Below, piece after piece: positions 1,393-32,241 of a stretch of DNA of 64,000 nt. The notes under the pieces are model-generated. The model made no database searches. It had not been told where the DNA came from and saw only the letters and a program-made list of their open reading frames with translations. The position numbers were made by a program, and so were the translations under genes. Where the stretch lies: the NCBI GenBank assembly GCA_032250835.1, contig JAVVEA010000004.1, forward strand, positions 32,001-96,000, read 5' to 3'. The stretch's first letter is position 1, and the number at the start of each line of letters is the position of its first letter. This stretch comes from a bacterium. GTDB taxonomy: Bacteria > SAR324 > XYD2-FULL-50-16.

Positions 1393-3543
1393 TTATAGGT
1401 TGATAGGGAGAGTGATGGTGAAGCAGGTGCCCTTTTCGAGCTCCGAAGTGACCTTTAGGTCACCTCCCAACTCCTTGACCCTCAAATAAACGGACTCAAG
1501 GCCCACGCCACGCGCATTGCTTTGGTCTTCGTCTGTGGAAAACAACAAGGCCAGCGATTGCTCGTCGTTCAGCGATTCGGCCTCTTCTGCGCTTATCTGG
1601 CCCCGTTCCACTGCTTCTTGCCGGATTTTTTGCGCGTTCAGGCCGCGCCCGTCGTCTTCGAAAGTCAGCACTAACTGGTCCCCTTCGAGGGCGGCGGCAA
1701 TCTTCATATGCCCTTCTAGGTCTTTACCTAAAAAGACCCGTTCTTCCATTTTTTCCAAGCCGTGCTGCACCGAGTTGCGCACTAGGTGGATCAAGGCGCT
1801 GAAAAGATCCTGCATCCGGTGCAGCGGGACGTCGAGGTCGTGGCCGGTGACCTCGATGACCAGTTGCTTGTTGAGGCGCTTGGCAAAGTTTTCGGCGATG
1901 ATGCCGTATTTCTTCAAAACCAGCCCAATGGGTTGGCGCATCATGGAGTCGAAGCCCTGGTTGATGCGTTCTAAACCCTTGGGGGCGATCTCGTTCCAGA
2001 GGTGGTTCTTGATGCTGCTCAAGCGGTGGCTGGTGATCTCTTGAAGGCCCGGTAGCTTGGTGAAGGGGCGGTAGTTTTTGTCGAAAATCTGGTCTAGTTG
2101 GTTTAAGGCACCTTTGAAGACTTCTTCTTCCATCATGGCACGGACTTCGGCGAAGCGGGCCTCGGGGACCTTAAAGATCGTTCGATCCATCAATTCATTG
2201 TCGGCGATCAGGCTGTCTAGATAGTCGATCTGCAACCGGTCAAAGCCATCTTTGACTTCGCTGGCCATCATCATCAACTGAGCGATGGCGTCGGCCCCAA
2301 AGCCTTCGGGGTTTTCTAAGATTTCCAGTAAAGCATGTTCAAAGTCCTCGGTCAGTTGGGACATCTCGGTGATTTCAAAAATCTCCGCGCCAGACTGTAG
2401 GGTATTGATGGACCCCAAAATGGAATCGGCCCGGATCTCGTCAGCCGGTTTTTCTAATTCCACGATGATCCCGCGCAAAATTTCCTCGGAAGTTTTGCGG
2501 TATTGATCATAGCCCTCTAAATCCATGGCGATTTTGAGGATCATTTCGTTGCGGTTCGCCTCTTCTTGGATGCGTCTTTCCAAGGCCACCTGGGCGGAGA
2601 TATCGGTGATCATCACCAAAATCATGTCCTGGTCCATGTCTTGGGCGTCTTGCAGATAGCGGTAGCTGATCTTTAAAACCGAATCACCTTGGCGCAGTTC
2701 GTTGGGTAACATTTCCTGCAACACGTCTAGGTCCGTGATCCGTAAGAACACCGTCTCCATCAGGTCGCGCAACATGGCGATGTCCGGCTCGGACTTAGCG
2801 AAGCTGGCCGAGTCGCGGTTGTAGGGGGTCCAATGGTGCAGCAGGATTTCTAAGGCGTCGGTTTCGGCGTCTAACTGGCCGAAATAGGGGTGGAACCCGT
2901 TGGTGTACAGGGGAACCACCGTGCCTTTGTTGGTGAAGGCCAAAAAGGCGGCGTCAGGGTGTTCTAAGAAGGCCTTGCCATGCTGGGCCAACACTTGGTT
3001 TTCGCGGTACTGCGGTTCGGCTAGCTCGGCAGCGGCAGTGGGCGTGCTGTGGCCGATTCCTTCGATGGCTTCTTCTAGTTCGCTGGTGTCGGTCAGGTCC
3101 GCCCCGGCTGAAGCCGTGGGGCTGCCGTCGGAGATCGCTAACTGGACTGCGTTGGCCGGTGCCCAGTCTTCGAAGAGGCCCGAAGCCAGCAGCCCTAAAA
3201 CGCTAACGGTGCTTTGCACTTCACTAGCCGCTTGGGCCCAAAGGGCCAAGACCACCTCATTATTGATCGCCACTGCCGCCAAGGCTAAGCCCTCGTGGCC
3301 GGGAATTTGGAGCTCGCGCACCAACAGGCCGTTGTCCAAGGTTTCTTGGTAGGCGCTGGCGCTTAAATTCAAAGAGAGGTCTTCGGCTTCTTCGCGGGTT
3401 TCTTCAGCTAAACAGCGGATGTCTTCGCCCTCGCGCAGGTAGATGGCACCATAGACCAAGCCGTGGGCACCTTCAAAGGCACGGCAGACTAGGGTCAGCA
3501 GTTCGTGGACAAAGGACGGGTCCGATACTGGGTTGGGGGCCAT
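1393..3543 (-). CDS. CheA-like histidine kinase/ATPase (HATPase_c; degenerate Hpt; no CheW domain)
   Basis: HLVRNSVQHG, EDDGRGL, RGVGL, GTCFTITLP motifs. Confidence 0.8.
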   Translation of the reverse strand: MAPNPVSDPSFVHELLTLVCRAFEGAHGLVYGAIYLREGEDIRCLAEETREEAEDLSLNLSASAYQETLDNGLLVRELQIPGHEGLALAAVAINNEVVLALWAQAASEVQSTVSVLGLLASGLFEDWAPANAVQLAISDGSPTASAGADLTDTSELEEAIEGIGHSTPTAAAELAEPQYRENQVLAQHGKAFLEHPDAAFLAFTNKGTVVPLYTNGFHPYFGQLDAETDALEILLHHWTPYNRDSASFAKSEPDIAMLRDLMETVFLRITDLDVLQEMLPNELRQGDSVLKISYRYLQDAQDMDQDMILVMITDISAQVALERRIQEEANRNEMILKIAMDLEGYDQYRKTSEEILRGIIVELEKPADEIRADSILGSINTLQSGAEIFEITEMSQLTEDFEHALLEILENPEGFGADAIAQLMMMASEVKDGFDRLQIDYLDSLIADNELMDRTIFKVPEARFAEVRAMMEEEVFKGALNQLDQIFDKNYRPFTKLPGLQEITSHRLSSIKNHLWNEIAPKGLERINQGFDSMMRQPIGLVLKKYGIIAENFAKRLNKQLVIEVTGHDLDVPLHRMQDLFSALIHLVRNSVQHGLEKMEERVFLGKDLEGHMKIAAALEGDQLVLTFEDDGRGLNAQKIRQEAVERGQISAEEAESLNDEQSLALLFSTDEDQSNARGVGLESVYLRVKELGGDLKVTSELEKGTCFTITLPINL

Positions 3544-3641
3544 TCTTTCCTCATGGAGGTTTACAACCGAGTTTTGGGCAATGCTTTCTTATACGCCGAT
3601 AGGCTCAAAGCGTCAAACCAAGGTTAACCCATGCTTTCAGC

Positions 3642-17459: not shown

Positions 17460-18791
17460 TCAGCTAGCCAACGGAATGGTTAAGGTGAAGATGCTTCCCT
17501 TGGGGAGGTTGGGCTCAAAGGTCAATTGGCAGTCCATTTTGTCTGCAAACCGTTTGGAAACATAAAGGCCAACGCCGGTGCTGCTTTCCAAAGATTGGGG
17601 TTTGTTGCCTACCTGAGCAAACTTTTTAAAGAGCAAGGGCTGTTTTTCGCTGGGTATGCCCATTCCTTGGTCCATCACCTGGATTTTGTAGGAATGATCC
17701 TTGATGCGGCCGAGGACGCGAATTTTTCCCCCCGATGCGCTGTACTTAAAGGCATTTGAAATCAGGTTGGAGATAATGATTTCAGTACTTCGTCGGTTTA
17801 ACCTACAGTTGCTTTCTTCAAAGGCGGAGGTTAATTCAATCCCCCGGATGATGGAGTCGGCTGGTTTTTTGTCGGTGATATATTCGAAGATCTGGTCGAT
17901 TCCTATGGTTTCCATGGCAAACAATTGGCTGATGTCTTCGGCATCGGCTAGCTGTAAAATCTCGTCTATTTGGCCCAGCATATTTGAAGAGGCTTGGGCA
18001 ATCATGCTTAAGTATCGCGCGCCTTCTTGCAGATCCGCTTCCCCGTTTAACAACTGAGACAATCCCGAAATGCCAATCAGAGGGGTTTTCAGGTCATGCA
18101 CAATCGTTTTCAGGTCTTCTCTTTTTTCGGTCAGCGCCTTCGCACTGGATATGGCGGTGCTTAATTTCTGGTCGTAACTAATTAGTTTTTCTTTGGTTTC
18201 GCTCAGCTGTTTGAGTAGCGTTCTTTGGTAAATTAGTTGGGTACCCGAAAGCGTGATGGTCTCAATGAGTGATTTATTGAACCGCAAAATGGCCGATACC
18301 TTTTCTTTGGAATATCTGGGGATTAGGCTAATGGACGCTAAATATTCCTTTTTATCGTACCCGAAGCGCTCGGCTTGTGCCTCAAAAGAGGCCCAATCAA
18401 TGGTTTCGTCTTCGTAGAAAAACTGGCCAAAATAGTAATTCGCCAGATGATAACCCCCAATATCGATGGGGATGGCCGCATCCCAGAGCCCATTTTGACA
18501 TTTGTAGGCAGGATATTGGAGATCAAGGTCCTGGCTCTGCTTTTCGGCCAGTTCTTGGGTGTTCTGGGTCAAAAAAAGATCGCTCGCAAGGCAGCCTGTG
18601 CAGCTTTCGGCGTTCTTGCGGTGGAACTCGGTACAGGCCCTTTGCCCGCCAGCCTGGGCAATGAAGGTCCCCTCAAGATCCAGGACCGCAACGGGGATGT
18701 TAAAGGCCTCAGATAGGTCCGTCAGTAATCGTTGCAGGTGGGATTGATCGATTAGGTCGGTGAATTTAAAGGGCAGGTTGGGTCTAGACAC
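17460..18791 (-). CDS. PocR sensor histidine kinase
   Basis: PocR cysteines (CTEFHR, CLASD, YKCQNGLWD), HDLKTPL, NAFKYS, DQGMGI; probable GTG start 18791 after AAGGAA. Confidence 0.88.
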   Translation of the reverse strand: MSRPNLPFKFTDLIDQSHLQRLLTDLSEAFNIPVAVLDLEGTFIAQAGGQRACTEFHRKNAESCTGCLASDLFLTQNTQELAEKQSQDLDLQYPAYKCQNGLWDAAIPIDIGGYHLANYYFGQFFYEDETIDWASFEAQAERFGYDKKEYLASISLIPRYSKEKVSAILRFNKSLIETITLSGTQLIYQRTLLKQLSETKEKLISYDQKLSTAISSAKALTEKREDLKTIVHDLKTPLIGISGLSQLLNGEADLQEGARYLSMIAQASSNMLGQIDEILQLADAEDISQLFAMETIGIDQIFEYITDKKPADSIIRGIELTSAFEESNCRLNRRSTEIIISNLISNAFKYSASGGKIRVLGRIKDHSYKIQVMDQGMGIPSEKQPLLFKKFAQVGNKPQSLESSTGVGLYVSKRFADKMDCQLTFEPNLPKGSIFTLTIPLAS

Positions 18792-27036: not shown

Positions 27037-28833
27037 ATGATTTCCATTTCTAAGGTAATTAAAGAGTTCCGCATCCCCAGCCTGCCTTCAGACCGGGTTC
27101 AGTTAGAGGTCTTGCTGGGTAAGGGGAGGGAATTGGCCTTGGGTGGCCATGATTCAACGGCGTTGTACCACTGGACTAGGGCCGCAGGGATTTCGAGCAG
27201 CGAAACGCTCGCTTTTGTCAAAAAGCTCTTTAGCCAATGGCGGATCGAAGGGCCCGAAGAAGCCCTACTGACCGCTGGCTTGATGCTGCTAAAATTAGAA
27301 AAGGCCGCGCCGCCGTTGACCAACTTCTTAGGCAATCTGGCGCGCCGCCAAGACAACCTGGGGCTGGCCAAAAAGCTTTATGCCGTAGGTGTCAAGGCCG
27401 CGCCGCTGCACAAACTCAGCCTCTTTAATCTAGCGGCAACGACCGCCAAACTGCCGCTCTACGATGCGGCAATCCCCCAACTCATAAAGAAGTGGCTGCC
27501 CACCGAAGAGGTGGTTTTGCCCGCATACCAGAGTGACCGGGAGGTGATACAAAAGATCACTGCAGCGCTGCATGAGGAAAAAAAGCTGGCCAAAGAAAAG
27601 CGCTTGGTCGAGTTGGCGGACCTGCAAGAAGAGGCGGAGCGCAACATGGACGCCCTCAAGATGCACGGCTACACCACCGAGGTCAAAACCCTGAGCCAGT
27701 CAGACTGTATGCCTAGTAGCGACGAGGTTTTGGCGGTGTTAGAGAAAGAGGTAGAACTGGACCAGCAGGACCCCGACCGGGTGGCCCCGTTGTTTGCCCA
27801 AAAGCGGCTCTACGACCTGGGGCTTTACGCCTTGAGCTTAGAACGCGCCGCCTTGGCGCGGACCTGCTTTGATCGGTTGGTTGCACTTGAGACCCCCTTG
27901 CCCCATATCCCCCTGCTCTTAGGCATGACCGACTACTTGGAAAAGGGGGTCGATGCCGGGTTAGAGGCACTCAATGATTGCCTGCACAAAGACCCCAAGG
28001 ACCGCTACGTCACGGCCAACATTGGTTTGATGCACCTCAGGGAGGGGCACCGTTATTCAGGTGCGCTGTACCGCCTGTTGGCGGCGAACCTGCTTGAGTG
28101 CAGCAACGGCCACTTCCATTACCCCGACTTTCTGGCCGAGGCCCAGGCGGCCTACGAAGACCCAGACCGCCAACGCTTGGCCCTAAAGCTCTACAACCAA
28201 ATTGCGTTAGAACGAGAAGACCCCACCGTCTGGGCCCGGATTGCCAAATTAAACTTCGACGCCAACCGCCTCAAAGAAGCGGCCCAAGCCTTAAAGGAGT
28301 GGCTGGTGTTGGAGCCAAACAATGCCTACGCTAAGGAAAAGCTGGTCGAGTTGAGTGAAGCCTTTTTGGCCAAAGGGCAGCAGCTAGAAACCGAAAAAAA
28401 ATACAAGGCGAGCATGAAGGTCTACCTACAAGCCGCCGAAATCGCCAAGACGCCGGAATTGCTCAAGCGGATTGAAGAAGGCTTTTACCGCTTCAAGCAG
28501 CCTTTAAAGGCCAAACAGGCCGAGATGGAACGGCATGTGATGGTGATGATGGAGCAACGCAAACGGGCGGCAAAGCAACAAGAGGAGTTGCTCAAGGTAG
28601 GCATGGCCTACCTACGCAACGGGGTCACCAAAAAAGCGGCGACCACCCTGGAAAAGGCCCTGGAGCTTAAGGCAAACCTGCCGATTTACCAGACCCTATG
28701 CCTGCTGTATAAAGACGAGGGCAACGAAAAGGACCTATATGAGTTGGAATCCCGCTGGGCCGACATGCTGGCCGAAGAAGAAGAAATGGCTAAGCGGGAA
28801 AAGGAATTCCATTGGTATTATGCGGGGCTTTAG
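27037..28833 (+). CDS. TPR-repeat protein (paralogue of 53549-55279)
   Basis: RBS GGAGG, helical TPR-like repeats. Confidence 0.8.
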   Translation: MISISKVIKEFRIPSLPSDRVQLEVLLGKGRELALGGHDSTALYHWTRAAGISSSETLAFVKKLFSQWRIEGPEEALLTAGLMLLKLEKAAPPLTNFLGNLARRQDNLGLAKKLYAVGVKAAPLHKLSLFNLAATTAKLPLYDAAIPQLIKKWLPTEEVVLPAYQSDREVIQKITAALHEEKKLAKEKRLVELADLQEEAERNMDALKMHGYTTEVKTLSQSDCMPSSDEVLAVLEKEVELDQQDPDRVAPLFAQKRLYDLGLYALSLERAALARTCFDRLVALETPLPHIPLLLGMTDYLEKGVDAGLEALNDCLHKDPKDRYVTANIGLMHLREGHRYSGALYRLLAANLLECSNGHFHYPDFLAEAQAAYEDPDRQRLALKLYNQIALEREDPTVWARIAKLNFDANRLKEAAQALKEWLVLEPNNAYAKEKLVELSEAFLAKGQQLETEKKYKASMKVYLQAAEIAKTPELLKRIEEGFYRFKQPLKAKQAEMERHVMVMMEQRKRAAKQQEELLKVGMAYLRNGVTKKAATTLEKALELKANLPIYQTLCLLYKDEGNEKDLYELESRWADMLAEEEEMAKREKEFHWYYAGL

Positions 28834-28937
28834 GCAGGGGACCGTAAGAACGGGCCCTTCGCGGAGGGGCCCCGCCTCTTTAGGTTGGCCCCTGTGCGTC
28901 ATCTGTGCTCCTAACCGCTGAGGCCGAACGATCCCTT

Positions 28938-28974
28938 GAAAATCAGGTGGTAAACTAGTTTGCGGTCGGCTTGA
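28938..28974 (+). repeat. Cassette-boundary site copy 1 (degenerate right half)
   Basis: GAAAATCAGGTGGTAAACTAGTTTGCGGTCGGCTTGA. Confidence 0.7.
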
Positions 28975-28980
28975 TAAAAT

Positions 28981-29358
28981 CTAAGCGAAAATCCCGCTAT
29001 GCAGGCCGAACTTCACATCAAAGTCGGTGTATTCAACGATGGGGCGGCTTTTGTTGTCATGTTTTTCAAAAGACACGATCCCATAATGAGACAATTTCTT
29101 TAGCGTCCGGCTTAAATTGGATTGAGCCCGCCCGGTTTGCTGGGCCAACTCGACTATGGAATTGGGATGCGTCTCTAGGATCATTTGCAACAGCTTTTGG
29201 TTCTCCTCGCTTAACAGCTGGGAAAGGGCCTTGACGGAGGGGAAAAAAACCTTCGGTTCCCCCTTGGCAGGTTTGTATTCCCCTTTCGCAATCCGAATGC
29301 TGCGCGCCTGATATTCGGCCAACGGCATGATCCCAATGGTAAGGGTTTTCGCTTTCAT
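28981..29358 (-). CDS. HTH putative antitoxin (HVO_A0114-like)
   Basis: FPSVKALSQLLS.EN, SIVELAQQTGRAQSNLSRTLKKL; ATGA-coupled to upstream gene. Confidence 0.85.
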   Translation of the reverse strand: MKAKTLTIGIMPLAEYQARSIRIAKGEYKPAKGEPKVFFPSVKALSQLLSEENQKLLQMILETHPNSIVELAQQTGRAQSNLSRTLKKLSHYGIVSFEKHDNKSRPIVEYTDFDVKFGLHSGIFA

Positions 29359-29690
29359 GGCTGTTTCTCCAAAAACTGGTTCACCTCGGCCCAAAAGTCT
29401 TCCAATAGCTGCCCGGCCGTTTTAAATCTGTAGGGGTACACTTTTTCTTGTTTGTGCAGATGATCCCATTCAACCCGGCGGTGTTCTTTAAAGCCATGGG
29501 CGTTGTCAAAGCCGATAACCCGGTGCTTGGTTTCGTCAAATAGGTTCAGGGCATATTTGATTCCATGGGGAACCTCCTTACGCACGGCAACCTTTTGGGC
29601 TTTAAAGCTCACAAAGTGGCTTGGCGATAAGGCAAAGGCCTCCCCGTCGAGGTCCAGCAGGTATTGCAACCCAGTTTGATCATCTTCCAT
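29355..29690 (-). CDS. DUF6516 (TumE-like) putative toxin
   Basis: PHGIKYAL.L......VIGFDNAH...WDHLH...Y.F.TA.QLLEDFW. Confidence 0.8.
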   Translation of the reverse strand: MEDDQTGLQYLLDLDGEAFALSPSHFVSFKAQKVAVRKEVPHGIKYALNLFDETKHRVIGFDNAHGFKEHRRVEWDHLHKQEKVYPYRFKTAGQLLEDFWAEVNQFLEKQP

Positions 29691-29698
29691 AGCGTGAT

Positions 29699-29717
29699 TA
29701 TATCAGCAGGTGATATA
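29699..29717. promoter_or_regulatory. Operator-like palindrome TATATCA-N5-TGATATA
   Basis: Perfect 7-bp inverted repeat immediately upstream of DUF6516 start. Confidence 0.6.
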
Positions 29718-29750
29718 TATTTGGAAGCGAATTCTTGAAGCCCCTGCGAG

Positions 29751-29789
29751 AAAAATCAGGTGGTAAATTTGTATGCTGTCAGCTGATTT
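29751..29789 (+). repeat. Cassette-boundary site copy 2
   Basis: AAAAATCAGGTGGTAAATTTGTATGCTGTCAGCTGATTT; contains the antitoxin stop codon. Confidence 0.85.
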
Positions 29790-30057
29790 CAAGCTGGTTG
29801 GTGGCGTACTTGTGCAGGATCGACTGGATCAACGTCTGGTAGGGAAGCCCCGCCTTGGCGGCTTTGAGTTGGATGGCCTCTAGGTCGGAATCGGGGATGC
29901 GGATGCTCAAAGGATGGGATTTCTTCAACGTCTGGTCGACGATCATCTTACCTTCGAGACGTTTCAGGGCTTCTGGCGAAGACTGGGTTTTCCCCTTCTT
30001 CAGGTCGTCCATCCAAGCGGCTTCCAGTTCATCCAGCGGTTTTGGGCGGTCTTTCAT
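29779..30057 (-). CDS. CopG/BrnA-like RHH antitoxin
   Basis: LSIRIPDSDLEAIQLKAAKAGLPYQTLIQSILHKY. Confidence 0.88.
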   Translation of the reverse strand: MKDRPKPLDELEAAWMDDLKKGKTQSSPEALKRLEGKMIVDQTLKKSHPLSIRIPDSDLEAIQLKAAKAGLPYQTLIQSILHKYATNQLEIS

Positions 30058-30317
30058 AAATACGTCCACTTTAGCTTGCGCTCAGGCCAAGCAGTGATCA
30101 AAAAGATTTCATCCTCCGATTCCCGAAAGGGCACGCCGCAAACCTCTTCCCCTACAGCAACGGTGAATGCTTGCTGGTCCGGGTAGGCCGGGCGTATTTT
30201 AATGCCCAATACAGCCCCGGCTTGAATTAAATCCGCTATCAACTCCAGTGAATGCCCACGATCCGGGTTCTCTTGCAGGATGCTGCTCTTCTCTGGATTC
30301 CAGCGTATCTTTTTCAT
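30054..30317 (-). CDS. BrnT-like toxin
   Basis: IRWNPEK...L....RG.S, YPDQ, VPF.E....IFLITAWPERK; ATGA overlap with antitoxin. Confidence 0.8.
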   Translation of the reverse strand: MKKIRWNPEKSSILQENPDRGHSLELIADLIQAGAVLGIKIRPAYPDQQAFTVAVGEEVCGVPFRESEDEIFLITAWPERKLKWTYL

Positions 30318-30365
30318 GAAGAAATTGTAGAACAACGTAGCTATAAGGACACCTAAAACCGCTAC

Positions 30366-30432
30366 AAATCCGGTGACCCTATGCCTATTCCCTGAAAATC
30401 AGGTAATAAATGGGTATGCTGTCACCGGGTTT
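30366..30432 (+). repeat. Cassette-boundary site copy 3 within a ~67-nt imperfect palindrome
   Basis: AAATCCGGTGAC...CCTGAAAATCAGGTAATAAATGGGTATGCTGTCACCGGGTTT. Confidence 0.85.
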
Positions 30433-30437
30433 AGTTG

Positions 30438-30767
30438 CTACCCAAGCAGCCGTTTCCCAAGGAGTTCCTCCATGTTTCGCCGACCGTCCAAAACAGCAAC
30501 GATGTAAACCGTCTTCGCTTGGATTTGATACAAGATGCGGTAGGGGCCTTCGTGGATTTCGAGGTGGCCCTGGTGGCCGACTGCTTCAAGTTCGGGCAAC
30601 ACATGCCCCCGTGCAGGGAGTGTAGATAGGCTATTGCAGGTTGCTTGGAGCTTTTGAAGGAGTTGGGTCGCTTTACCTATGGAGTCATTGGCTCCAACCC
30701 AACGAAAGACATCTTTTAAATCTTTAATGGCCGGTTCAGTGAATTCCACCCGGTAGCTAGGATTCAC
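30438..30767 (-). CDS. RelE/ParE family toxin
   Basis: YRVEFTEPAIKDL, LSTLPARG..LPEL, PYRILY, VLDGRR; probable GTG start 30767. Confidence 0.9.
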   Translation of the reverse strand: MNPSYRVEFTEPAIKDLKDVFRWVGANDSIGKATQLLQKLQATCNSLSTLPARGHVLPELEAVGHQGHLEIHEGPYRILYQIQAKTVYIVAVLDGRRNMEELLGKRLLG

Positions 30768-31038
30768 CGAGCCCGAACTCCTCACGAATTTCAGCAAACA
30801 CCTCATCGGCAGGTCGTGTTCGCCCCTCTGCAATGGCTTTTTGGCTTTGTGCCAGCATCTTCAGCAAGGCCAAAGTTTCTTGGGTCTGCTCATAGCTGTG
30901 GATGTCTTGCAAGACGGCCTTGGCTTCGCCGTTTTGGGTGATCAGCAAGGTGCGGGGCTCCTGGCCCATATGGCGGATCAGTTCCGCCGCGTGGGCCTTG
31001 ACGTAGCTAATGGGCTTGATGTCTTCGCTGGGTTTCAT
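30757..31038 (-). CDS. Phd/YefM family antitoxin
   Basis: DIKPISYVKAHAAE, ITQNGEAKAVLQDI..YE. Confidence 0.93.
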   Translation of the reverse strand: MKPSEDIKPISYVKAHAAELIRHMGQEPRTLLITQNGEAKAVLQDIHSYEQTQETLALLKMLAQSQKAIAEGRTRPADEVFAEIREEFGLGES

Positions 31039-31060
31039 ATTCGGCTCCTGATGATGACTG

Positions 31061-31090
31061 ATTTTAGACTAGATTTAGTCCGAAGGTCAA
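31061..31090 (-). promoter_or_regulatory. Sigma70-type promoter of phd-parE with operator palindrome
   Basis: Minus strand TTGACC-18nt-TAAAAT; GACTA-GATT-TAGTC (31067-31080) in spacer. Confidence 0.65.
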
Positions 31091-31154
31091 GACCACATCA
31101 GGCAGAGCAAACGGGATGGGGACGTTAAGGAGAAGGATCATGCTCATATTCCGT

Positions 31155-31187
31155 AATCAGGTGACAGCATACCAATTTACCGTCTGA
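31155..31187 (-). repeat. Cassette-boundary site copy 4, inverted
   Basis: Reverse complement reads TCAGACGGTAAATTGGTATGCTGTCACCTGATT; extra arm CACCTGATT at 31207-31215. Confidence 0.85.
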
Positions 31188-31231
31188 GTAAAAAGTGAAA
31201 TATCTCCACCTGATTGGCAGGTGCTAAGGGC

Positions 31232-31384
31232 CTAAGGAACCGCCGCCGGAGCGACCCAAATGGCCCAGGCCAGCCCGCCGATCATCACGGCCAGCGCGGT
31301 GAAGGCTAAAAAGGCGGCGATTCGGTTGATCCGGTGGGCCCAGCGGCAGTAGAGCTGGGAAAGCCAGTCTGGGGGCCAGCTCAT
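31232..31384 (-). CDS. 50-aa membrane peptide (not in ORF track)
   Basis: ATGA overlap with pirin stop; MSWPPDWLSQLYCRWAHRINRIAAFLAFTALAVMIGGLAWAIWVAPAAVP. Confidence 0.6.
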   Translation of the reverse strand: MSWPPDWLSQLYCRWAHRINRIAAFLAFTALAVMIGGLAWAIWVAPAAVP

Positions 31385-32241
31385 GGTTCGATCCGGCCCA
31401 TCTTGCCGGACTCGTAGTCCTCGATGGCTTGCATGATTTCGCTCTTGCTGTTCATCACAAAAGGTCCGTAGCGGGCCACCGGCTCGTTCAAGGGCACCGC
31501 GCCGAGCATCAGCAATTCACAGGGTTCCTCGGCGGTCAGCGCCACCTCGTCGCCGGGGCCCATCACCAACCAATCCCCGGCCTCACCGTTCCAAAGTTCC
31601 GCCCCGAAGCGGCCCTGGCCGTGTAATATATAGAGGTATCCCGTCAACTCCGCATCCAGCGGCAAGCTCAGGTCTGCCCCGGCCTCTAACTTGACATGGG
31701 CATAAAAGATCGGGGTGGTGGTTTGTATTGGCGACTGCTGGCCCTCTAAGCTGCCGGCGATCAGCCGGGCCCAAGCATGGGGCCAAGTCAACTCGGGCAG
31801 TTGCTCTTTGGGGAATTCCTGGTAAGAAGGCTCAGACATCTTGGCGCTGGCCGGTAGGTTGACCCAGAGCTGGATGCCCTCTAAAACCCCGCCCTGCCGT
31901 TTAAATTCGGCTTCAGGCAATTCGGAATGCACCGCGCCGCTGCCCGCGTTCATCCACTGCACGTCGCCGGGGCCCAGTTTGCCGCTATGGCCTGCGCTGT
32001 CTTTATGTTCGAACTTGCCTTGCAGGAGATAGGTCACCGTCTGAAACCCCCGGTGCGGGTGCGGCGGCGCACCGAGGGCCTCACCGGGCGGCCAGTCTTT
32101 GGGCCCCATGTGGTCGAGCAACATGAAGGGATCGGCAAAGGCCAAGTCCGCCGTCGGGAAGGGGCGGCGCACCGGAAAGCCGCCACCTTCTAGGGTGGAG
32201 ACGGAACCGAAACGCTGGGCGATGTTGCGTGGGGTGGTCAT
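31381..32241 (-). CDS. Pirin family protein
   Basis: DPFMLLDH, HPHRGFQTVTY, GAVHSE, YGPFVMN. Confidence 0.96.
   Translation of the reverse strand: MTTPRNIAQRFGSVSTLEGGGFPVRRPFPTADLAFADPFMLLDHMGPKDWPPGEALGAPPHPHRGFQTVTYLLQGKFEHKDSAGHSGKLGPGDVQWMNAGSGAVHSELPEAEFKRQGGVLEGIQLWVNLPASAKMSEPSYQEFPKEQLPELTWPHAWARLIAGSLEGQQSPIQTTTPIFYAHVKLEAGADLSLPLDAELTGYLYILHGQGRFGAELWNGEAGDWLVMGPGDEVALTAEEPCELLMLGAVPLNEPVARYGPFVMNSKSEIMQAIEDYESGKMGRIEP

Follow-up and report, generated by a model that had tools for sequence, protein, structure and literature searches.

Systems in which repetitive extragenic palindromic (REP) elements, also in the form of REPINs, occur together with the gene of a REP-associated tyrosine transposase (RAYT) have been described as REPtrons (accessible part of PMC8266576). 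In the present study, a row of small toxin-antitoxin (TA) operons punctuated by a short repeated site was investigated in the genome of a SAR324 bacterium. The stretch analysed comprises 64,000 nt (positions 32,001 to 96,000, forward strand, of contig JAVVEA010000004.1, assembly GCA_032250835.1) and is called the window in the following. A similar layout is known for the Xer-dependent pdif modules of Acinetobacter plasmids, in which TA and other small modules lie between inverted sites of about 28 bp with a dyad-plus-spacer structure. For the window, the original prediction had proposed a new gene-capture system, which builds its array in trans by sequential addition of cassettes. Our results point to another assignment. 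The punctuating site is very probably a REP element, belonging to a REP/REPIN family with its own RAYT, and what was taken for a 'cassette array' consists of successive accessory operons whose junctions carry REP/REPIN copies.

A profile search of the genome (G000; 3.66 Mb, 97% complete) with PF01797 (Y1_Tnp) gave exactly one match (C43:2594-2884, 44 bits). The respective Y1/HUH open reading frame (ORF), C43:2516-3175, encodes 219 aa and is located on a different contig from the array. It is enclosed by two copies of the site, an inverted one about 50 bp upstream (C43:2440-2465, minus strand, 35.8 bits) and a direct one overlapping the stop codon (C43:3169-3194, plus strand, 41.1 bits). A Y1 or RAYT gene flanked by the same site, named as a check of the original prediction, was thereby found, and the postulated trans-acting system exists in so far as the site belongs to an HUH system with its RAYT on contig C43. 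The sole NCBIfam match of the protein was NF047646 'REP-associated tyrosine transposase' (E 2.6e-17). In an alignment, the residues H60, H62 and Y119 were invariant in 10 homologues. The top PDB match of the AlphaFold model (pLDDT 81.6) was 4er8_A, the E. coli RAYT in complex with a REP hairpin (E 1e-7, TM 0.68 on the target). The TnpA proteins of IS608 and ISDra2 were the next fold matches.

Furthermore, 41 related genomes were searched, none of them of the same genus. RAYT orthologues with 45-63% identity were detected in G015, G008, G012, G026, G004 (broken by stops) and G017 (partial). Inverted copies bracket the orthologue in three other genera (G015:C33, G017:C173 and G008:C97). In G004 and G012 it is flanked on one side only, in G026 on neither side. 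Thus, the single Y1 gene between inverted copies, the same arrangement at orthologues and the match of the model to 4ER8 lead to the assignment of the site as a REP/REPIN with RAYT.

Two further observations concern RAYT loci. At G008:C97:605-1422 (L051) the orthologue (59% identity) has a diverged variant of the repeat on both sides, and the two copies at the RAYT gene are the only ones in that genome (79% complete). Since this variant occurs at two places only, it forms no independent repeat population, and the locus is a putative REPtron without dispersed repeats. In G000 the RAYT locus, which is situated outside the window (C43:903-3723, L044), is a dense array with nine copies in 2.8 kb. 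These copies separate a cold-shock-domain gene (2102-2362), the RAYT gene (2516-3175) and a GFA-family gene (3193-3621).

The distribution of the repeat in G000 was examined with a position weight matrix (PWM) from 17 seed copies, which match by construction. Thresholds of 12 bits and, for strong copies, 20 bits were used. The scan gave 78 sites above 12 bits, compared to 3 in a shuffled genome, and 55 sites above 20 bits. The strong copies are spread over 14 contigs with mixed orientations; 47 of the 55 lie outside long ORFs and 8 inside ORFs of at least 100 aa, which, by a crude greedy calling, make up 88.3% of the genome. Close pairs were found in the orientations (-,+) 11 times, (+,-) 0 times, (+,+) 5 times and (-,-) 4 times. 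This corresponds to the pattern of doublets with tandem extras that REPINs and BIMEs show. The RAYT gene sits inside a (-,+) pair, and all TA and accessory modules lie between pairs in the arrangement (+ ... -). In general, the genome combines a RAYT-type Y1 HUH gene in single copy, inverted repeats at its flanks, 55 strong repeats which are mostly extragenic, and inverted hairpin doublets, as in REPtrons. Among the 68 ORFs adjoining strong copies are genes for GDP-mannose dehydratase, HypD, QueA, a sigma-54 activator, response regulators and a UvrD-type helicase. TA and defence genes are also found there: CopG antitoxin (3), HTH_3 (2), ParE, Fic, DUF433 and TIR.

The 18-mer core (at most 1 mismatch) was detected in 9 of the 41 related genomes, and a reversed control pattern gave 0 matches everywhere. 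G000 has 23 matches, G015 68, G004 11, G017 11, G016 10, G014 5, G012 3, and G007 and G009 have 1 each. A scan of 185,579 species genomes resulted in 43 matching stretches. All multi-copy stretches originate from metagenome-assembled genomes titled SAR324 (25 stretches), 'Deltaproteobacteria bacterium' (2) or 'bacterium' (3). The remaining 13 are single matches in unrelated taxa, about the chance level for an 18-mer. A literature search gave no paper joining 'SAR324' with 'repetitive extragenic palindromic', and in the accessible part of PMC5581495 'toxin-antitoxin' appears as general background only.

In the array of the window, the following features were found:

28938..28974, plus strand: copy 1, long REP variant with intact 5' arm (28940-28954, 0 mismatches) and decayed 3' half
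28981..29690, minus strand: TA-type operon 1, TumE-family toxin (29355-29690) and HVO_A0114/MarR-type helix-turn-helix (HTH) partner (28981-29358)
29751..29795, plus strand: copy 2, REP core 29765-29790 (40.4 bits), 5' arm AAATCAGGTG pairing with the 3' end
29779..30335, minus strand: TA-type operon 2, protein of 88-93 aa (30054-30335) and overlapping CopG/ribbon-helix-helix (RHH) antitoxin-like gene (29779-30069)
30365..30390, minus strand: weak inverted copy, the fifth (13.5 bits), left half of a REPIN-type doublet with copy 3
30394..30438, plus strand: copy 3, REP core 30408-30433 (38.0 bits), 5 nt past the ParE stop, right half of the doublet
30438..31038, minus strand: TA operon 3, Phd/YefM antitoxin (30757-31038) and ParE toxin (30438-30770)
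31061..31090, minus strand: sigma-70-like promoter of Phd-ParE (TTGACC, 18 nt, TAAAAT)
31148..31216, minus strand: copy 4, inverted, REP core 31153-31178 (46.0 bits, the best of the genome)

Copy 1 lies 6 nt past the stop of the HTH (TumA-like) gene and scores below the 12-bit threshold. Copy 2 includes the stop codon of the RHH gene. Copies 1 to 3, spaced by 813 and 643 bp, are direct repeats with a common 5' extension that is specific to this locus. Copy 4 is located upstream of the Phd-ParE promoter; its 5' arm (31206-31215) is detached behind a 25-nt insertion. The earlier description of three co-oriented TA pairs, each with a copy of one site behind it, and of a fourth, inverted copy closing the row was reproduced with its positions, spacings and stop distances, and the weak fifth copy has to be added to it. 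In copy 1, described there as the most decayed, the decay concerns the 3' half.

The length of the site, given before as about 35 bp, has to be revised. An alignment of all genomic matches of the 3' half revealed a conserved unit of 26-28 bp, the core GAAAATAGGTATRCTGTCACCTGATT, and the conservation extends beyond the site described earlier, downstream through CCTGATT. The 5' extension AAAATCAGGTGGTAAA is a feature of this locus: genome-wide, exact matches of its 14-mer were found at copies 1 and 2 only. With at most 1 mismatch, the 3' half GTATGCTGTCAC is present three times in the window (29771 plus, 30414 plus and 31161 minus), at a chance expectation of 0.09; three matches were reached in 0 of 100 shuffles. 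The 5' half AAATCAGGTGGTAAA was found at 28940 and 29753 (0 mismatches each) and at 30396 (2 mismatches). A fourth match at 17759 resembles chance, and the 5' half is weak on its own, with at least 4 matches in 8 of 100 shuffles.

Folding as DNA supports the doublet form. The stretch 30350-30445 forms one long hairpin (-16 kcal/mol, z -4.0), and none of 200 shuffles was as stable. Both arms of this doublet are altered to CCGG and the pairing is retained. For a doublet of G015, -21.1 kcal/mol (z -10.9) was calculated, for copy 2 -5.8 kcal/mol (z -1.6). The core itself is an imperfect 10-8-10 dyad, whose arms match at 8 of 10 positions. One Xer-like gene of G000, on C9, is about 44 kb away from the nearest copy by coordinate comparison.

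Several results weigh against the assignment as REP. The single unit is a poor palindrome, and its DNA fold (-2.2 kcal/mol, z -0.09) is no better than those of shuffles. A conserved GTAG or CGTC tetranucleotide before each REP palindrome, as expected for a REPtron, was found neither 5' of the unit nor before 13 examples of the G015 doublet. With 63 bits, the protein remains below the curated cut-off of NF047646 (80 bits), and a PDB search with the RAYT sequence gave nothing significant (E 0.13). With about 55-78 copies, the family is small for REPs. The common 5' extension of copies 1 to 3 looks like the product of a local duplication and not of independent arrival. Furthermore, the copies are clustered: 31 of the 55 have a neighbour at a distance of 150-2500 bp, whereas 500 random placements gave 3.75 on average and at most 14, and several of these clusters bound TA or defence modules. 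Regarding the tetranucleotide, it is 'most often GTAG' before REP palindromes and hence not absolute (accessible part of PMC8266576). A conserved GTAT is found inside the unit.

The repeats thus concentrate strongly at the junctions of small accessory modules. A second array in G000 (C14:5312-9527, L045) contains four modules, each bounded by copies. Module 1 consists of an 83-aa unknown gene and a CopG/BrnA-like gene, module 2 of a 455-aa TIR-domain protein, module 3 of two unknown genes and module 4 of HigB with an HTH partner. In G015, doublets cut up cargo of the integron type, namely genes for glyoxalase/bleomycin-resistance-like, GNAT, GFA and GrpB proteins, a methyltransferase, VapBC and a HEPN-nucleotidyltransferase. 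Scattered copies with no link to cargo, which would have spoken against the original prediction, were observed in one respect, the 14 contigs with housekeeping neighbours, but not in the other, the clustering.

A link between repeat and cargo was examined at homologues of the modules. G007, which belongs to a sister genus, has homologues of all three TA operons at other places, with no copy in the fetched loci. Its ParE-Phd operon shows 76% nucleotide identity over 30439-31091 of the window, from the ParE stop to the -35 box, with both REPs excluded. Because the homology stops exactly at the -35 box of the sigma-70-like promoter, the conserved mobile unit consists of the promoter and the two genes, without the repeats. 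Partial paralogues of the RHH operon and of Phd in G000 (C38:230120 and C8:64126) have no copy nearby either. Altogether, 0 matches above 10 bits were obtained in the four loci with TA homologues. The cassettes of G015 are also present in its congeners G017, G012 and G004, on other contigs, with 0 repeats above 12 bits in 7 loci; among the genomes sharing them, G015 alone has the repeat. As copies are missing at shared cassettes and at TA homologues, the site does not travel with the cargo. Neither the new gene-capture system with sequential addition of cassettes nor gene capture of TA modules via the site is supported.

Integrons in the relatives were also considered. Integron integrases above the curated cut-off were detected in G015, G004, G016 and G012, with an internal stop in the gene of G012 and in one of the two genes of G015. 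No copy of the repeat was found in the four intI loci. Between the cassettes of G017 lie attC-like repeats of about 118 bp that are unrelated to the site. The 8-Mb genome of G015 contains, at C84:130000-138000 and 163000-180500 (L065 and L066), tight 56-bp doublets within arrays that also carry attC-like repeats of about 118 bp. These arrays look like real integron cassette arrays invaded by REPINs. At L066:5400-5550 and L065:2920-3100, the doublet borders directly on an attC-like repeat, of which the left half, GGATTTGCC(A/G)GGAATTT, is present and the right half is unrecognisable. This was the case in 2 of 13 inspected repeat clusters of G015, and the doublet may have been inserted into attC sites or may have replaced them.

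REP-mediated capture would be another explanation. In this case modules would be gained, lost or duplicated at REPs, a circular module would carry one repeat, and RAYT-catalysed strand transfer or REP-REP recombination would leave a cassette-like array, with one direct repeat per module, in line with the original prediction. We regard it as unlikely. The strong massing at module junctions, the array on C14 and the integron-type cargo divided by the repeat in G015 would agree with it, as would the direct orientation of copies 1 to 3 with their common extension. For the cassettes shared within genus g5, homology ends near repeats, e.g. L066 5503-6250 starts at the edge of a repeat. However, the missing copies at shared cassettes and TA homologues contradict it, the modules are in the configuration opposite to that of the RAYT gene, and many copies stand between housekeeping genes. 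Direct comparison also gave nothing in its favour: none of the 41 genomes is of the same genus, and metagenome scans with the TPR protein and with the long repeat pattern (0 stretches) returned no related DNA. In one DNA sequencing run, 8% of the words were found, and 42 short contigs, mostly 85-95% alike, cover parts of the TPR, HTH, Phd and pirin genes; these contigs, with no cover over 29461-30819, contain no joints and no circle or deletion junction, on a cover too fragmentary for conclusions about the presence or excision of modules. TPR orthologues occur in G007 (63% identity) and G003 (61%). In two TPR loci of relatives, each of 11 kb, the TPR protein was the only one of 14 window proteins with a match, so synteny is lost and gain or loss of cassettes is not readable there. 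An insertion or duplication of modules mediated by REPs, which the clustering and the local variant of copies 1 to 3 would fit, is improbable.

A site for a tyrosine recombinase, either an unusual integron attC within a cluster of attC sites lacking integron integrases (CALIN) or a pdif/Xer-type module site, is still far less probable and can hardly be upheld. The 10-8-10 dyad, the attC-like folding of the doublets, the cassette-type cargo in G015 and the integron integrases of G015, G004, G016 and G012 would suggest it. However, G000 has no integron integrase (best TIGR02249 score 67 bits, cut-off 265 bits), and the four intI loci of the relatives are free of the repeat. By coordinate comparison, none of the six PF00589 genes of G000 is in the window or within about 5 kb of a repeat. 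With a crude regular expression, 0 RYYYAAC...GTTRRRY pairs were found in 28700-31400 and 13 in the whole window, none of them with fully complementary boxes. The earlier statement that the site is not an attC is retained, and it is no obvious dif. The copies are neither co-oriented nor confined to the array, since they occur on 14 contigs, and the attC-like repeats of the relatives are absent from G000. A role in expression, with the site acting at operon ends as a common terminator or as a hairpin that stabilises the mRNA, or else as an operator, is very unlikely as well. REP elements are reported to affect mRNA stability and termination. Copies 1 to 3 lie 0-6 nt from stop codons and each ends in a U run on the mRNA strand, as expected for this role. 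Against it, folding the four copies as RNA gave values no better than those of shuffles (z +0.46 to -1.14), a terminator consensus scan calls none of them, and no Rfam family matched up to E 1. Copy 4 is situated upstream of a promoter, an operator common to three unrelated TA families would not be expected, and the linkage to the RAYT is left unexplained.

The three TA operons are ordinary, independent modules of the type II kind. According to the ORF listing, the window region 28981-31038 comprises six small genes, all on the minus strand, in three co-oriented operons. Profile searches identified the toxin of operon 1 as TumE (PF20126, formerly DUF6516; E 9.7e-10) and its TumA-like partner as an HVO_A0114/MarR-type HTH protein (PF25212; E 2.6e-20). 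Operon 3 matched Phd/YefM (PF02604; E 1e-15) and ParE (PF05016; E 2.8e-18). These two pairs, as annotated before, correspond to type II systems, with two small genes next to or overlapping each other and with recognised domains of a toxin and of an antitoxin. The middle pair corresponds only in part: the antitoxin-like gene reaches 26.3 bits with CopG_antitoxin, slightly below the cut-off of 28 bits, and the protein of 88-93 aa has no Pfam or NCBIfam match. The name 'BrnT-like', given earlier to this 93-aa protein, is not supported, as no family match was obtained and BLASTP against a true BrnT of the same genome gave E 0.10. The window was reported before to be free of integrases and transposases. 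This holds for tyrosine recombinases and Y1 transposases; the search did not include other transposase families.

Two minor observations were made at the ends of the array. A hydrophobic ORF of 50 aa (31232-31384, minus strand), for which no family match was obtained, shares 4 nt with the start of the pirin gene; it may encode a small membrane protein co-transcribed with pirin. In run X1, a single low-depth contig of 327 nt fits 28954-29169 (minus strand) with about 107 letters unplaced, which is weak evidence that a relative may differ left of a point inside copy 1 (28954).

For the REP/REPIN assignment, the following mechanism appears most economical. The REP occurs as singlets and inverted doublets of the REPIN/BIME type, and one RAYT (C43:2516-3175) would maintain the whole family in trans. 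By analogy with the E. coli TnpA-REP and the IS200/IS605 transposases, the enzyme would bind and cleave the repeat in its folded single-stranded form, thereby moving the repeats. Copies would be spread into tolerated intergenic DNA, for which the spacers around non-essential TA operons would qualify, and would settle in the short spacers at the operon ends. The copies would therewith have reached the TA junctions independently of the TA genes. We consider it improbable that in SAR324-type bacteria REP/REPIN copies serve as junctions for inserting, excising and shuffling TA, defence and integron-type modules, by RAYT strand transfer or by REP-REP recombination of circular modules. If true, a REP-based cassette system would exist parallel to, and inside, true integron arrays.

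The tested assignment to REP/REPIN-RAYT replaces the unsupported new gene-capture system and extends this type to the uncultured SAR324 lineage, with a repeat lacking the usual GTAG tag. By accumulating at the borders of TA, defence and integron-cassette genes, these repeats mimic cassette arrays. Caution is therefore needed, as a pattern of gene plus site is not always an integron analogue. It is a concrete question whether REP junctions contribute to the movement of accessory modules.

Compared to known systems, the family shares the enzyme fold and hairpin ends with IS200/IS605 elements and their non-autonomous derivatives. In contrast to these, the RAYT gene is present once, against a far larger number of repeats without a transposase of their own, and the TA modules are not enclosed as cargo by left and right ends. 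With pdif modules it has in common that modules are flanked by an inverted site of about 28 bp with dyad-plus-spacer layout; here the site is linked to a RAYT and not to Xer, and is chromosomal and dispersed. Integron arrays and CALINs likewise consist of small, mostly co-oriented accessory genes including TA pairs, separated by a hairpin-forming repeated site, and are served in trans by an enzyme acting on folded single strands, which for the RAYT would hold by analogy. They differ from the system in G000, where there is no IntI, the site has no R''/R' boxes, orientations are mixed and copies also stand beside housekeeping genes; in addition, the site does not accompany the cargo elsewhere, and the IntI-bearing relatives use the attC-like repeats of about 118 bp instead.

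From the REPtrons of E. coli (REP/BIME with TnpA-REP/RayT, PDB 4ER8), Pseudomonas fluorescens, Stenotrophomonas and Marinomonas, the SAR324 system is distinguished by its uncultured host, by the missing GTAG/CGTC tag 5' of the palindrome and by a barely palindromic singlet. The family is AT-rich, comprises about 55-78 copies and is unusually massed at TA, defence and cassette-type junctions, and the divergence of the RAYT keeps it below the NCBIfam cut-off. In common with these REPtrons are the single-copy Y1 HUH gene inside inverted short repeats, the dozens of extragenic copies and the inverted hairpin doublets with tandem extras. As in Marinomonas (accessible part of PMC8266576), copies are concentrated near the RAYT gene, and as in REPtrons the repeat variant changes together with the RAYT orthologue.

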